Shown here piece after piece: positions 59,846-64,000 of a DNA stretch of 64,000 nucleotides. The DNA comes from Escherichia phage iGC_PHA_EC001. Within the stretch, counting starts at the first letter, position 1; the number at the start of each line of letters is the position of its first letter. Location: the sequence record OR437326.1. One strand, given 5' to 3'. The translations under genes were made by a program, and so were the position numbers. The notes beneath the pieces are model-generated. The model did not search any database and was not told the DNA's origin. It worked only from the letters and a program-made list of their open reading frames with translations.

Positions 59846-60448
59846 TTATGGACATTCATACCATTCTTTTTTACCACCGAAGGCCATCACCACATCACAA
59901 ATATCCAGACCAGCTTTACCTACACCATATGCTTTCAGCTTCCATTCCCCATCTTCACGAACCAAGGAAGCCACGTGGCAGATTGTGTTGCCAGCTACTT
60001 CAGGAGCCAGGAAGTCAAAATCCAGAATTTCCACATTGCGCTCGGAGTCGAAGATTTTAAGCATACCTTCAGAAGCATGACCAAAACGTTTCAGACCTGT
60101 ATCATCATCAATGGTCAGAACAAAGGCAATCTCTTGTGCATCAGGAGAGATTTTAGCCAGAGTAATATCAATCTGCTCCATGCTGCCAGTTCCATCACGA
60201 ACATCGTCACCAGCGAAGGTAGAACGTTCAGGATCAAACTTGTTAGCATAGCAAACCAGATGACGTGCAGACAGCATTTCAGGATTACCAGCGGCATTGT
60301 GACGACAAACCAGTGCACTTACATCCAGATCCAGTTTAGAATCAGATTTCCAAGAGAATTCCAGGCGCAGTTCTTTCAGAGCCGGAGCAACTTTCTTCAG
60401 GGAAATTTTTTCGCTAGAGCCTTTTTTCAGGGAAATTTTATCAGTCAT
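59846..60448 (-). CDS. TerD-family protein
   Basis: Tandem ISLKKG...ISLKK N-terminal repeats, DLDVSALV, GDDVRDGTG acidic metal-binding-like loop, IAFVLTI, EDGEWKLKAYGVG all parallel E. coli TerD. Confidence 0.7.
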   Translation of the reverse strand: MTDKISLKKGSSEKISLKKVAPALKELRLEFSWKSDSKLDLDVSALVCRHNAAGNPEMLSARHLVCYANKFDPERSTFAGDDVRDGTGSMEQIDITLAKISPDAQEIAFVLTIDDDTGLKRFGHASEGMLKIFDSERNVEILDFDFLAPEVAGNTICHVASLVREDGEWKLKAYGVGKAGLDICDVVMAFGGKKEWYECP

Positions 60449-60463
60449 CTTTTGTCTCCTCTA

Positions 60464-60733
60464 TTATTTAAGTGTAATACCAGTTACAGTCAATTCTACT
60501 TCCAAAAGCTTAGATGTGTTTTGGATTGATACTAATTGTGCATGATGGTTTAGTTCTACAGCAGAATAATCATTTTCCCCATCATCTACTTTTAAATAAA
60601 CAATGATTTCACTAAGGTCTAAACCATTTTCGTCAAATGCATTTTCATAGACGAAAGTATCTCCTACATCCAAATCTTTAATGGTAAGGCATCGTTTATT
60701 TACTTTTTGCTCATCAATTTCGAAGTTTAACAC
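60464..60733 (-). CDS. hypothetical small protein, paralogue of 61755..62033
   Basis: Shares DLDVGDTFVYENAFDENGLD ... EVELTVTGITLK blocks with the other copy. Confidence 0.4.
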   Translation of the reverse strand: MLNFEIDEQKVNKRCLTIKDLDVGDTFVYENAFDENGLDLSEIIVYLKVDDGENDYSAVELNHHAQLVSIQNTSKLLEVELTVTGITLK

Positions 60734-60962
60734 TTCTTCCTCCTAATGTTATCTCCGGTTTGTATATACGAAGAATTATAGCATTTTCATTTTCTTTGTC
60801 AACCCATTCTTCATAATCGGGCCATACATGAATCTCTACTCTACTTACAATATCTTCCATTCGCACAGTCCCAATGAAATACTCTTTGAGACTGCGCATA
60901 ATGAAAGCTTCTCTCTCGCGCCAATAATTTTCTATGACTTGAGAGGCAAGCTCGTCGATCAT
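60714..60962 (-). CDS. hypothetical protein (82 aa)
   Basis: ORF track. Confidence 0.35.
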   Translation of the reverse strand: MIDELASQVIENYWREREAFIMRSLKEYFIGTVRMEDIVSRVEIHVWPDYEEWVDKENENAIILRIYKPEITLGGRSVKLRN

Positions 60963-61753
60963 TTTTTAGCACCCACTTTAACAACCCACTCTCCGAACTC
61001 TTCAGATAAGAGTTTGTCATAAAGCTCTGAATCTGTCAAGTCTAAATCTTTAATGCCAATAAAACCAACATTATCATAAGCATTTGCCAGTTCTTTCAGG
61101 AAGCCAAACTTCTCATTACCAACGCCAACCATGAACCAATAAATAGGTTTATTCTTATTCTCTTCGATAAGACGACGAACAGCACTAGGATCACCATTCT
61201 CACCATCCGTCTGGAAGAATACAACACTAGGGGTAACGTCAGCACCTGGTTCAGATACAGCTACAACTTTTTCACGCTCTACAGACACTGTTTCAGTTTT
61301 ACCAAGCAGACGATTAAAGAAGCCTTTCTTTGGAGCCTCCTCTTGTACCACTTGTTTAGTGGTAATATATTTAGTAACAGTGCCAAAATACTCATCGTAG
61401 ATATCCGCCATTACAGGGGCGTAATTTGTTCCACCTCCGATACGAACATTACGCATACATTTACCAACATAGTCATCGTAAACATCTGCTGTTGCTGGAG
61501 TAAGCTCTTGGGAACTCGTATTGAAGGCCCACATATCAATTTGTTGATTATCGTCGAACAGCATACCAAAAGGAAGCAGTTTACCTACAAAATCACTCAC
61601 TACCCCACTAGAATATAGACCATGCATACTACCAGAAATATCTAGAGCACATGCTACACGAAGAACAATCTTACCTTCATTCAGGTTCTTATTCTTTTTC
61701 AGAGAGAAAGCAAGGTTTTCTTGACGTTTTTTCAGGCTGATTTTCTCGGACAT
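60959..61753 (-). CDS. von Willebrand factor A domain protein (TerY-like) with TerD-type N-terminal repeat
   Basis: MIDAS motif in ACALDISGSMHG (DxSxS); N-terminus MSEKISLKK echoes the TerD N-terminus. Confidence 0.55.
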   Translation of the reverse strand: MSEKISLKKRQENLAFSLKKNKNLNEGKIVLRVACALDISGSMHGLYSSGVVSDFVGKLLPFGMLFDDNQQIDMWAFNTSSQELTPATADVYDDYVGKCMRNVRIGGGTNYAPVMADIYDEYFGTVTKYITTKQVVQEEAPKKGFFNRLLGKTETVSVEREKVVAVSEPGADVTPSVVFFQTDGENGDPSAVRRLIEENKNKPIYWFMVGVGNEKFGFLKELANAYDNVGFIGIKDLDLTDSELYDKLLSEEFGEWVVKVGAKK

Positions 61754-61754
61754 A

Positions 61755-62033: not shown

Positions 62034-62589
62034 GCATACCTCCTCTACCAATTTTGAAGCCCAAATCGTAAGCTTCCTTAGTGATCTTTTGTAACTCACT
62101 TATAGGAAGTGTTACAAGAGGATCATCTTCTTCAATTTCCATCTTGTCATCTTCTGTTTCAATGAGAGTATTATGCACTTTGTGATAAGGGTTGTCAACA
62201 CGTTTAAACTTATTCTTTTCTGTGCTGAAAAAACAATCTGGATCTTCTTCACCATCACCCCAACCTTGGTTAGGATCTCCGTCAGATTGTTCTGTAGGGA
62301 TTTCACCTGTAAAGTACTCTTCCAGCACCATAGCGATACCGTCCCTTGGATTTGAGGAATGCATCAAATCACAAACCTTACTCCAATCCATAGCCCATTC
62401 AAATCGTTCACGAACGCCGTTTTCATCCTCCTTTCCAGAGAAAACACAACCATAACTATCATAGTTGCCATACATCTCTTCAATAACAACACCGTCCTTC
62501 AAAAGAAAAAGATAACAAGGTGATCCGTCGAAAGAAGTAGAAAGGGCAGCTTTGCCCGATTCTTTGCACAAAAAGCTAAAACAACCCAT
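62026..62589 (-). CDS. hypothetical acidic protein (187 aa)
   Basis: ORF track. Confidence 0.4.
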   Translation of the reverse strand: MGCFSFLCKESGKAALSTSFDGSPCYLFLLKDGVVIEEMYGNYDSYGCVFSGKEDENGVRERFEWAMDWSKVCDLMHSSNPRDGIAMVLEEYFTGEIPTEQSDGDPNQGWGDGEEDPDCFFSTEKNKFKRVDNPYHKVHNTLIETEDDKMEIEEDDPLVTLPISELQKITKEAYDLGFKIGRGGMRV

Positions 62590-62792
62590 TACAAACCCTC
62601 CTTCAGATTATCAAGAGCTATAGTGGTTTCACAAGAGTCTCCATAAGTTTTATGATGTTCCAGAAAAGCTTCGGGTCCACCCCAGTCATTATCTTGCGTA
62701 TTCCAGCCATCAATAAAAGCATCTTCAATGATTGTGATCAGTTCTTGTCGGGTTAACTGGATAATATTAGGATCGTTATCGTAGTTAAACAT
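62589..62792 (-). CDS. hypothetical protein (67 aa)
   Basis: ORF track; ATGTTTAA overlap with upstream small ORF. Confidence 0.35.
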   Translation of the reverse strand: MFNYDNDPNIIQLTRQELITIIEDAFIDGWNTQDNDWGGPEAFLEHHKTYGDSCETTIALDNLKEGL

Positions 62793-62958
62793 CTTCTTCC
62801 TCCTCTAAAATATGGAACCCGTAATTACAATAATCCTGAAAGGTTTCGTGCGCAAGATCTTCTATATCCTCTTGAGACATATCATCTTCAATTTCGATAT
62901 CCACAACCTCATTGCATCCACACCAAGCAGTTTCAATATTCACTCGTAATATTTTCAT
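62791..62958 (-). CDS. small acidic Cys-containing protein (55 aa), not in ORF track
   Basis: ATG overlaps stop of upstream gene; stop overlaps start of downstream gene (translational coupling chain). Confidence 0.3.
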
Positions 62959-63158
62959 TACTCCTCCTCCTCCTCATTGAAGTCAATATCTGCAATGAGT
63001 TCGAATTTACGGAAGTTACGACAACCTTCATAAATATAACAATCACGACAAACTGCTAGAACACTTGGGGGATATATACCTCCCATCGGTGCGAATCGTT
63101 TTTCGTCATCATAACGGACACCAATGTCTTCATCAATTATATAGATACGGATTCTCAT
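62958..63158 (-). CDS. hypothetical protein (66 aa), Cys-containing, acidic tail
   Basis: ORF track. Confidence 0.35.
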   Translation of the reverse strand: MRIRIYIIDEDIGVRYDDEKRFAPMGGIYPPSVLAVCRDCYIYEGCRNFRKFELIADIDFNEEEEE

Positions 63159-63994
63159 TTACCAAGCCCTCGTTTCACAGCAGCTACCATCCCGTCTTCC
63201 AGAGATTGAACTTCATTAATATAATCAACACGAGCAGCACGGGCTTCCGTATTGATGCGGTTAGTTTCTTCCAACATCTTAACCAAGTTTTCCTGATCGT
63301 GACGCAGAGTTTCAATATCCAACACTTGACGGTTAGCCAGTGCTGCTGCTTCGATCTGATTCTGTGTGGCAAGATCGCTACCCAGTTTAATTGCTAGGTT
63401 AAATTCATCAAGAACGTTATTCTGCGTCTCTGCTGCTTTCATTTGACGTAAGCTCTCGATATACATTGAGAAGTTAGCAGAGTAAGCAGGAATAACATTA
63501 TTTACTATGTTACGCGCAGATCGCATTAAGCTTGCAGAAACTTTTTGCATACCTTGTACACGCGGTCCCATTTGGACACACAGTAGGCGCAATGCTTTTA
63601 AATCTGCAATACGAATCTCCAGAAGATCCAAAGTATCTCGGATCACTTGTCGCTGTTCTACTGCATCTTCTGGAAGAGCAGCCAAAGCTTGTTCTTCTTT
63701 TTCATAGGTTGCTGTTAGAAGCTGCATATCTCGGTTCAAACTTGCAGCATATTGTCCAATAGCTTGATGTAGCTTTTCAAGATATACCAAGGAATCTTCT
63801 TCTTTGCGAATATCCATTTGAAGGTTCTTTACCAACTCTTCAATACGGTTATTAACATTATCAAACTCCCCAAACAGGTCTTCTTTCATACCCATAACTT
63901 TTTTAATGAGTTTAGTAATACCCTTGCTTTGTTTAATAGAGTTTGGATCAAGTTGTTTTGCCTGTTTAATCAAAGCTGTGAGTCGTTCACTCAT
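63155..63994 (-). CDS. alpha-helical protein, possibly TelA/KlaA-like
   Basis: Long helical/coiled-coil protein adjacent to vWA and TerD-family genes; assignment rests mainly on context. Confidence 0.3.
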   Translation of the reverse strand: MSERLTALIKQAKQLDPNSIKQSKGITKLIKKVMGMKEDLFGEFDNVNNRIEELVKNLQMDIRKEEDSLVYLEKLHQAIGQYAASLNRDMQLLTATYEKEEQALAALPEDAVEQRQVIRDTLDLLEIRIADLKALRLLCVQMGPRVQGMQKVSASLMRSARNIVNNVIPAYSANFSMYIESLRQMKAAETQNNVLDEFNLAIKLGSDLATQNQIEAAALANRQVLDIETLRHDQENLVKMLEETNRINTEARAARVDYINEVQSLEDGMVAAVKRGLGK

Positions 63995-64000
63995 CTGATC

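Follow-up and report, generated by a model that had tools for sequence, protein, structure and literature searches.

The promoter-distal end of a Ter gene cluster conserved in phAPEC8/phi92-type virulent E. coli myoviruses

Ter genes are, to our knowledge, among the most widespread bacterial "stress" genes that remain unexplained, and we know of no accepted mechanism for them. Three classical phenotypes are attached to them: tellurite resistance, phage inhibition, and colicin resistance. The plasmid-borne phenotypes require TerB, with terBCDE as the minimal set. Here we analyze the Ter genes at one end of a 64,000-nucleotide stretch (the window) of Escherichia phage iGC_PHA_EC001 (sequence record OR437326.1), where an original prediction made from the letters alone had proposed a module of TerD, vWA, and TelA proteins. 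Comparison with related genomes showed that the window holds the promoter-distal end of a ~10-kb Ter cluster that is a core feature of the Stephanstirmvirinae (phAPEC8/phi92-type virulent E. coli myoviruses).

The Ter cluster of these phages is a long-annotated, already known feature. The novelty implied by the original prediction therefore did not survive, as the module is annotated in many GenBank records and has been discussed in print. Many relatives carry the names "TelA-like protein", "tellurite resistance", "TerD family protein", "general stress protein 16U", and "VWA domain-containing protein" on these genes. The phi92 record lists a "putative membrane bound tellurium resistance protein", a "toxic anion resistance protein", and a "stress protein", and a 2015 metagenomic study listed phi92 gp172, gp173, and gp178 as TerD, TerD, and tellurite-resistance proteins. 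The paper on ZCKP1, a phage 99.1% identical to the window, reported four tellurite-related genes and proposed that they protect against superinfection and colicins; the same protective hypothesis has been proposed for jumbo phages. PhiPsa374 encodes terC (gp11), terD (gp12), and terF (gp13) as well as telA (gp15), a gene set shared with phiKp34, and its authors likewise reject a tellurite-resistance phenotype. Other Ter clusters of virulent phages (PhiPsa374, phiKp34, Caulobacter and Acinetobacter ME3 jumbo phages, and phi92 with gp172/173/178/182) thus hold the same TerC, TerD, TerF-type vWA, and TelA, without TerB, and ME3 has a phosphoribosyltransferase (PRTase) and a HAD enzyme as well. 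Compared with them, nothing essential differs here: between vWA and TerD, Phapecoctavirus has two additional small open reading frames (ORFs) along with a consensus promoter, and the acidic loop of the Stephanstirmvirinae TerD is shortened relative to the jumbo-phage TerDs. The functions suggested in the original prediction (superinfection exclusion, handling of Ca2+ or membrane stress, coupling to nucleotides) are also ideas already in the literature, and the present data decide between none of them. What we add is the extent of the cluster beyond the window, its core status, the purifying selection, the recurrent gene order, the absence of TerB from the cluster, the TerF type of the vWA protein, and the shortened loop.

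Among bacterial systems, plasmid ter operons have been credited with phage inhibition and colicin resistance (Whelan 1995, as relayed by citing papers), and a terC deletion in K. pneumoniae lowers resistance to tellurium, zinc, manganese, and phage. The phage cluster resembles the terZABCDEF operons (with terWXY) of the IncHI2 plasmid R478, E. coli O157, and K. pneumoniae in its TerC and TerD families and in a vWA of the TerF C-terminal kind. Unlike the R478-type operon, it has no TerA, TerZ, or TerE paralog among its ORFs, its vWA protein stands alone instead of being fused to TerD, and it contains TelA, which that operon lacks. No ORF of the cluster matched TerB or a second TerD paralog, with the scan for TerB confined to the cluster. 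The envelope-stress operon yceCDEFGH of Bacillus subtilis, which comprises three genes of the TerD family along with one TerC and one TelA-like gene, is alike by description in joining TerD, TerC, and TelA without TerB; the phage differs in its single TerD, in the added vWA, PRTase_3, and HAD genes, and in regulation. A further likeness is to the Ter-dependent stress response system (Anantharaman, Iyer and Aravind 2012, as summarized in PMC7824862), with its membrane TerC, ligand-binding TerD, submembrane TelA and TerF-type vWA, and an arm of Ter-linked PRTases and HAD enzymes, which PMC7824862 describes as the metabolite arm of Ter systems. Unlike the full bacterial system, the phage cluster yielded no TerB, ATP-grasp, or C-C lyase in its ORFs, and a macro domain joins its metabolite arm. 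Finally, the TerY-P anti-phage system (TerY vWA, PP2C phosphatase, and Ser/Thr kinase) also has a "Ter"-named vWA, but the phage protein belongs to another Pfam family, has no PADLOC match, and has no phosphatase or kinase partner.

By sequence identity, the window is a Phapecoctavirus, a phAPEC8-like virulent myovirus of the subfamily Stephanstirmvirinae. Over 4.8 kb, it shares 99.3% identity with Dompiswa phage TSP7_1, Escherichia phage vB_EcoM-P3322, and Shigella phage SF1-1, and 98.5–99% with dozens of further Phapecoctavirus genomes. The minus strand carries every plausible gene from 59.2 kb to the window end, including the three Ter genes:

59846..60448, minus strand: TerD-family protein, 200 aa, soluble (Pfam PF02342)
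60959..61753, minus strand: vWA-TerF-like protein, 264 aa, complete MIDAS (PF10138)
63155..64000, minus strand: TelA (toxic anion resistance family), the 3' 846 nt of the gene, encoding the C-terminal 281 of 370 residues (PF05816)

We regard the identity of these parts as virtually certain. The clear TerD predicted at 59846–60448 scored far above the gathering threshold of PF02342 (E=3.2e-28, 98.9 bits, cut-off 25.3; profile positions 3–177 of 187). In a phmmer search it aligned end to end with the solved structures 2KXT/2KXV (E=1.5e-15) and 3IBZ (E=2.9e-14), which are proteins of K. pneumoniae and Streptomyces; identity to K. pneumoniae TerD is low (the same phmmer E). No transmembrane (TM) segment was predicted in TerD, and GenBank annotators call it "general stress protein 16U / YceD". 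The Ca2+-binding motifs of TerD, as reportedly set out in the K. pneumoniae TerD structure paper, are DLD and an acidic loop, GDN(R/L)TG(E/A)GDGDDE. The phage TerD retains the DLD motif. Its acidic loop, GDNxTGEGDGDDE in the canonical form, has become GDDVRDGTGSMEQ, which is two residues shorter and lacks the GDD dyad. The shortened loop is common to the whole lineage (Stephanstirmvirinae), whereas other phage TerDs, including those of jumbo phages, keep the canonical one.

TerD is effectively a core gene of the lineage, judged by record counts, because 131 phage records carry it (at least 80% identity) and 133 carry the lineage primase/helicase (at least 60% identity). tblastn placed one TerD in each genome. 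The phi92 counterpart, gp172, is 80.8% identical to the TerD of the window. A second TerD in phi92 gp171 or in a 207-aa ORF of another locus (L009) was considered and rejected, as Pfam shows no TerD domain in either.

The vWA ORF matched the vWA-TerF-like family PF10138 (E=7.8e-38, 131.1 bits, cut-off 29.4), a domain present in 62/62 of the vWA homologs found. Its metal ion-dependent adhesion site (MIDAS; D38-x-S40-x-S42, T109, D183) is complete: in a 24-sequence alignment D38, S42, T109, and D183 are invariant and S40 is kept in at least 90%. The AlphaFold2 (AF2) model has a vWA fold (predicted local distance difference test, pLDDT, 90.7; predicted template modeling score, pTM, 0.81), in which residues 125–169 are an insertion that forms a long beta-hairpin. 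Foldseek with this model returned integrin I-domains, the copine BON1, RGLG, and the MDN1 MIDAS domain at ~1e-6. Family profile, alignment, and model thus agree on the vWA protein with a MIDAS motif predicted at 60959–61753. The added label "TerY-like" was mistaken. The generic VWA profile PF00092 reached only 19.8 bits, under its 23.8 cut-off, PADLOC gave no match, and no kinase or phosphatase partner was found among the neighboring genes; by these profile results, the protein belongs with the TerF C-terminal type rather than with TerY. The TerD-like N-terminal repeat also proposed for it was half right. A ~20-residue N-terminal motif, KISLKK...FSLKK, does resemble the start of TerD (KISLKKGSSEKISLKK), and in the 24-sequence alignment it hardly varies within the vWA-TerF-like family, but it is modeled as a helix and is not a TerD domain. 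The nearest named bacterial homolog of the vWA protein (38% identity) lies in a prophage-like island of Neobacillus vireti GCA_036961795.1 (locus L008, 9404–13928; integrase, Phage_rep_O, HNH), with the order TerD-vWA-TerC followed directly by a PRPP-synthetase-like (Prs-like; PRPP, phosphoribosyl pyrophosphate) gene and an NAMPT gene, the latter two amounting to nicotinamide adenine dinucleotide (NAD) salvage.

TelA runs into the window edge. The fragment at 63155–63994 matched PF05816 (E=2e-28, 99.9 bits, cut-off 30; profile positions 47–327 of 332) and phrog_5890 (positions 90–372 of 374), and the full-length protein of SF1-1 reached E=3.2e-33 and 115.7 bits. The reading frame is open from the ATG at 63994 to the window edge without an upstream stop, and the intact gene encodes 370 aa in 99%-identical genomes, where it starts ~267 nt past the window end; therefore, the ATG at 63994 is an internal Met. 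Thus, the TelA-like protein predicted at 63155–63994 does belong to the TelA family, but its ORF is cut by the window end. The AF2 model of the fragment (single-sequence, pLDDT 70) is all-helical, with three helices of ~80 residues each. A fold search with it gave generic coiled-coil matches only (E at least 0.03), and phmmer of PDB sequences found no solved relative. No TM segment was predicted in TelA or in the vWA protein.

We read the remainder of the cluster in SF1-1 and SKA64 (locus coordinates are given as L001 for SF1-1 and L003 for phi92). Beyond the window end lie the rest of TelA, an SprT-like gene, four ORFs without assigned function, TerC, macro, PRTase_3, HAD, and anaerobic ribonucleotide reductase genes. 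In transcription order the ~10-kb cluster reads HAD hydrolase, PRTase_3, macro, TerC/Alx, SprT-like, TelA, vWA-TerF-like, TerD, with small lineage-specific ORFs between, and it sits within a block of replication and nucleotide-metabolism genes. TerD, TerC, TelA, and vWA all lie on one strand at most 7 kb apart in the 99%-identical relatives, and phi92, from the sister genus, has the same gene order.

The Ter genes are strongly conserved between the two genera. Identity to phi92 is 81% for TerD, 79% for TelA, 71% for TerC, 68% for vWA, and 66% for PRTase_3, compared to 71% for the primase/helicase. The corresponding ratios of nonsynonymous to synonymous substitution (dN/dS), approximate because dS is near saturation, are 0.13, 0.09, 0.15, 0.16, and 0.07, compared to 0.09 for the primase/helicase. 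By these ratios, TerD, TelA, TerC, vWA, and PRTase_3 are under purifying selection in the same range as the primase/helicase. HAD is the least conserved component (48% identity, dN/dS 0.40). The conservation data exclude decay or misannotation of the Ter genes.

We then asked how often these genes travel together, using 27 independent viral loci with 10-kb flanks (25 from an IMG/VR scan with the vWA alignment and two contexts from a protein database). Near vWA, TerD was present in 24/27 loci and TelA in 23/27, always on one strand and in the order TelA, vWA, TerD. The linkage holds down to 27% vWA identity, and the triad is directly contiguous in 340–500-kb (jumbo-phage) contigs. The PRTase_3 and HAD pair accompanies the triad in nine of the 27 loci, jumbo phages included, and TerC does so in eight. 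A distant 144-kb myovirus (46% vWA identity) reads NrdD...TerC...TelA...vWA-TerD...endolysin, with PRTase_3 moved to the other side. Because the triad recurs on one strand in one order across these loci, TelA, vWA, and TerD are, as far as gene order tells, the conserved core of phage Ter clusters. A phage-borne module of these three proteins in a virulent phage, as originally predicted, is thus borne out by both profile matches and recurrence.

The other members of the cluster were also assigned. TerC matched PF03741 (3e-40) and the TerC/Alx metal-homeostasis subfamily TIGR03718 (319 bits, cut-off 246), and it alone has TM segments; TerD, vWA, and TelA are soluble. In L001, terC (16333–15257, minus strand) has a promoter-like TTGACA-16-TAAGAT site in its upstream gap, and a GC-rich hairpin (AGCCTCCTTCGGGAGGCT) and a T tract come right after its stop codon, so that terC looks like a self-contained transcription unit. 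Rfam found no Mn riboswitch or other known regulatory RNA upstream of phage terC at three loci, although the Alx subfamily is otherwise riboswitch-associated. Recent capture of terC from the host was rejected, as there was no blastn match in 5,426 E. coli genomes. PRTase_3 (PF15610, E=2e-41) has an intact PRPP loop, VFIDDVNITGT, by direct reading. The HAD match is weak, under the Pfam cut-off and at 1e-8 for NCBIfam HAD-IA families, and in motif I the protein has retained the nucleophile Asp while the second Asp is missing. These two genes, ~5 kb past the window end in the 99%-identical relatives, lend support to the link to nucleoside-like metabolites that the original prediction had drawn. 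The macro-domain gene (L001 16571–17044, minus strand, ~4 kb past the window end in SF1-1; phi92 gp185 at L003 6737–7453) adjoins PRTase_3 in both genera. Its product resembles the DarG antitoxin macro domain at the N-terminus (PADLOC 4e-10, NCBIfam 1e-8), so that it might act against DarT (DNA ADP-ribosylation) and not belong to the Ter pathway. In phi92, nrdD is split by a group I intron (L003 1916–2190; RF00028, 70.6 bits), already annotated there as a spliced variant.

The genes that follow TerD in the direction of transcription are a SleB-type endolysin and three small ORFs, then four glycosyltransferases, and after them the primase/helicase and the DNA polymerase. All are transcribed from right to left, and the Ter genes are thus upstream of the glycosyltransferase block, not downstream as had been stated.

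59225-59746, minus strand: SleB-type endolysin (Hydrolase_2, E=2e-17) with an N-terminal hydrophobic signal-like segment ending AKA/EA
55378-58522, minus strand: four consecutive glycosyltransferases, two GT-B/GT1-like, one GT2-like, and one other

In Phapecoctavirus, in phi92, and in more distant 140–150-kb myovirus contigs, the endolysin follows TerD immediately or one gene further downstream. A lysis cassette around TerD was considered and rejected, as no holin-like TM protein adjoins the endolysin. The glycosyltransferase block has 66–76% identity in phi92.

Several small ORFs and candidate promoters are interspersed between the Ter genes of the window:

60464..60733, minus strand: small ORF, 89 aa, phrog_11278 copy B (PHROG E=7e-45), between vWA and TerD
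60714..60962, minus strand: small ORF, 82 aa, phrog_22387, not in phi92
60775..60802, minus strand: candidate sigma-70 promoter, TTGACA-16 nt-TATAAT with an upstream TG (extended -10), inside the 82-aa ORF
61755..62033, minus strand: small ORF, 92 aa, phrog_11278 copy A, immediately 5' of the vWA gene; phi92 counterpart gp174
62026..62589, minus strand: 187-aa protein, phrog_14928, starting MGCFSFLC
62589-62792, 62785-62958, and 62958-63158, minus strand: three small ORFs of 67, 57, and 66 aa, the 57-aa one DUF7167-like below the cut-off

From their distribution, the ORFs between TelA, vWA, and TerD are lineage-specific insertions. The two phrog_11278 copies are paralogous (34% identity, E=2e-14); phi92 has one copy and Phapecoctavirus two, and copy B (60464–60733) is a lineage-specific insertion absent from the phi92 gene map. 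We rejected phrog_11278 as a new Ter component, since its homologs, only seven among 5.8 billion protein clusters, are all of this phage lineage. The 187-aa ORF was rejected as well. Its ~135-aa N-terminal domain has 314 homologs at 50–65% identity in phage-like metagenome contigs (marine and others), where it lies in unrelated replication regions without Ter genes. This domain, to which no Pfam family corresponds, is a strongly constrained, unnamed phage domain, and the 187-aa protein is probably an unrelated passenger inside the cluster.

The candidate promoter at 60802–60775 lies 42 nt upstream of the GTG at 60733, the start of the small ORF that precedes TerD. It is the sole exact match to TTGACA-N16-TATAAT in the 64-kb window; at least one match occurred in 9/100 shuffles. 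The 187-aa ORF contains an 11/12 sigma-70 match (62170–62198, minus strand), upstream of the small ORF ahead of vWA. Both sites thus sit just upstream of one phrog_11278 copy, which precedes TerD or vWA, respectively, and the arrangement suggests that a cassette made up of promoter, small ORF, and Ter gene was duplicated. The consensus matches fit, without proving, early transcription by host RNA polymerase.

Two further observations concern the records and the window. GenBank MG065650 ("Campylobacter phage" B15) is 98.9% identical to E. coli Phapecoctavirus/Justusliebigvirus genomes, and MG065639 and MG065656 ("Campylobacter phage" A150 and C3) encode a TerD identical to that of these E. coli phages. 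On these identities, the "Campylobacter" host labels of the three records look doubtful. The window also carries a cluster of ten tRNA genes on the plus strand (3902–5819: Met, Arg, Ser, Asn, Thr, Gly, Gln, Pro, Ile, Met).

What might the Ter genes do for the phage? We tentatively favor, at somewhat less than even chances, that their products form a submembrane, metal-dependent complex that shields the infected cell from superinfecting phages and colicins. The genes would be transcribed early by the host RNA polymerase. TerC would act as an Alx-type divalent-cation transporter in the inner membrane, and TelA with its long helices, vWA with its MIDAS, and TerD with its Ca2+-type beta-sandwich would form a peripheral metal-dependent assembly. 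TerC and this assembly would change the state of the inner membrane and envelope of the infected cell, which, up to programmed lysis, would withstand both the entry of DNA from superinfecting phages and pore-forming colicins. By analogy, the phage would use the phage inhibition and colicin resistance of plasmid ter operons to guard its own infected cell. PRTase_3 and HAD would make a ribonucleoside-like ligand from PRPP; Anantharaman, Iyer and Aravind are said to have proposed such a synthesis for bacterial Ter systems. We lean toward protection because of the linkage of the triad, its core status, the purifying selection, the restriction of TM segments to TerC, the promoter-like sites, and the phenotypes of plasmid ter operons and of K. 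pneumoniae terC.

Several points weigh against protection. TerB, which the plasmid phenotypes require, has no Pfam match in any intervening ORF of the cluster. TerD, vWA, TelA, TerC, and PRTase match no PADLOC defense model, and membership of a catalogued defense system was rejected on this ground. The shortened acidic loop without the GDD dyad may alter Ca2+ binding of the lineage TerD. The promoter calls are consensus matches only, and promoter-like sites in L001 (72, versus 58.6 +/- 7.4 in shuffles) are not clearly enriched. That the genes matter to the phage follows from their conservation, but their function does not, and we found no experiment on any phage ter gene in the searched literature. 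Under a bolder idea, which we consider improbable, the compact triad, conserved in phages as small as 145-kb myoviruses and as large as 500-kb jumbo phages and always without TerB, would be a machine adapted to phages and separate from the Ter systems of bacteria, an early submembrane assembly that blocks rival genomes or blunts membrane-targeting abortive-infection effectors. The N-terminal ISLKK...SLKK of TerD and vWA would then be a docking signal (for example, to TerC or TelA), and the degenerate TerD loop would reflect a changed ligand, the product of PRTase_3/HAD in place of Ca2+.

The cluster might instead serve the phage's own housekeeping, with TerC/Alx exporting or buffering Mn2+, Zn2+, or Ca2+ and TelA-vWA-TerD stabilizing the inner membrane against the strain of infection; this would set the latent period and the timing of lysis, for example by restraining the Sec-signal SleB-type endolysin. 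We think this unlikely, but it draws on the strong TIGR03718 score of TerC, on the Zn(II) and Mn(II) resistance conferred by K. pneumoniae TerC, and on the location among replication and nucleotide-metabolism genes. The Hydrolase_2/SleB endolysin beside TerD, with no adjoining holin, in the window, in phi92-type loci, and in distant 140–150-kb myovirus loci also speaks for it; however, jumbo-phage triad loci lack this adjacency, which may therefore be inherited synteny only. The missing Mn riboswitch or other known regulatory RNA upstream of terC counts against it.

A central small-molecule arm is an appreciably weaker candidate. PRTase_3 and HAD (with macro) would make or destroy a nucleoside or ADP-ribose-like compound, sensed or put into effect by TerD, vWA, and TelA, either as counter-defense against nucleotide-signaling or NAD-depleting immunity or as a precursor for DNA or surface modification with the four glycosyltransferases. 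The intact PRPP loop of PRTase_3, the recurrence of the PRTase_3 and HAD pair up to jumbo phages, the DarG-like gene beside PRTase_3 in both genera, and the Prs-like and NAMPT genes after the Neobacillus TerD-vWA-TerC all suggest it. Yet in most viral triad loci PRTase_3 is absent from the surrounding 10 kb, so that the triad can do without it, and HAD is both the least conserved component and short of the second motif I Asp. Moreover, the endolysin and three other ORFs separate the glycosyltransferases from the Ter genes, and macro/DarG-like proteins are explicable alone as anti-DarT factors. That the cluster is a host-benefiting "moron" for tellurite or toxic-anion resistance, as the PHROG and GenBank labels and the family names of TelA and TerC would have it, we find scarcely credible. 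A virulent phage has no lysogenic state from which a host could profit, the PhiPsa374 authors are equally negative for a comparable gene set, and terC has no DNA-level relative in the 5,426 E. coli genomes. The cluster has neither TerB nor TerA/Z/E paralogs, and without TerB, a second TerD, ATP-grasp, and C-C lyase it is therefore not a terBCDE tellurite-resistance determinant; the label "tellurite resistance" is not to be taken for a phenotype.

These results bear on both the use of these phages and the biology of Ter. Phapecoctaviruses are frequent candidates for phage therapy, and the label "tellurite resistance gene" is repeatedly flagged in their safety screens; an incomplete, phage-core gene set with no TerB in the cluster helps to interpret such flags. 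The presence of the module is itself no news. Because host tellurite resistance can be ruled out, these phages are a clean test ground, and a stripped-down set of TerC, TelA, vWA, TerD, PRTase_3, and HAD, kept as a core under purifying selection, would offer a clean and genetically tractable model of Ter function.

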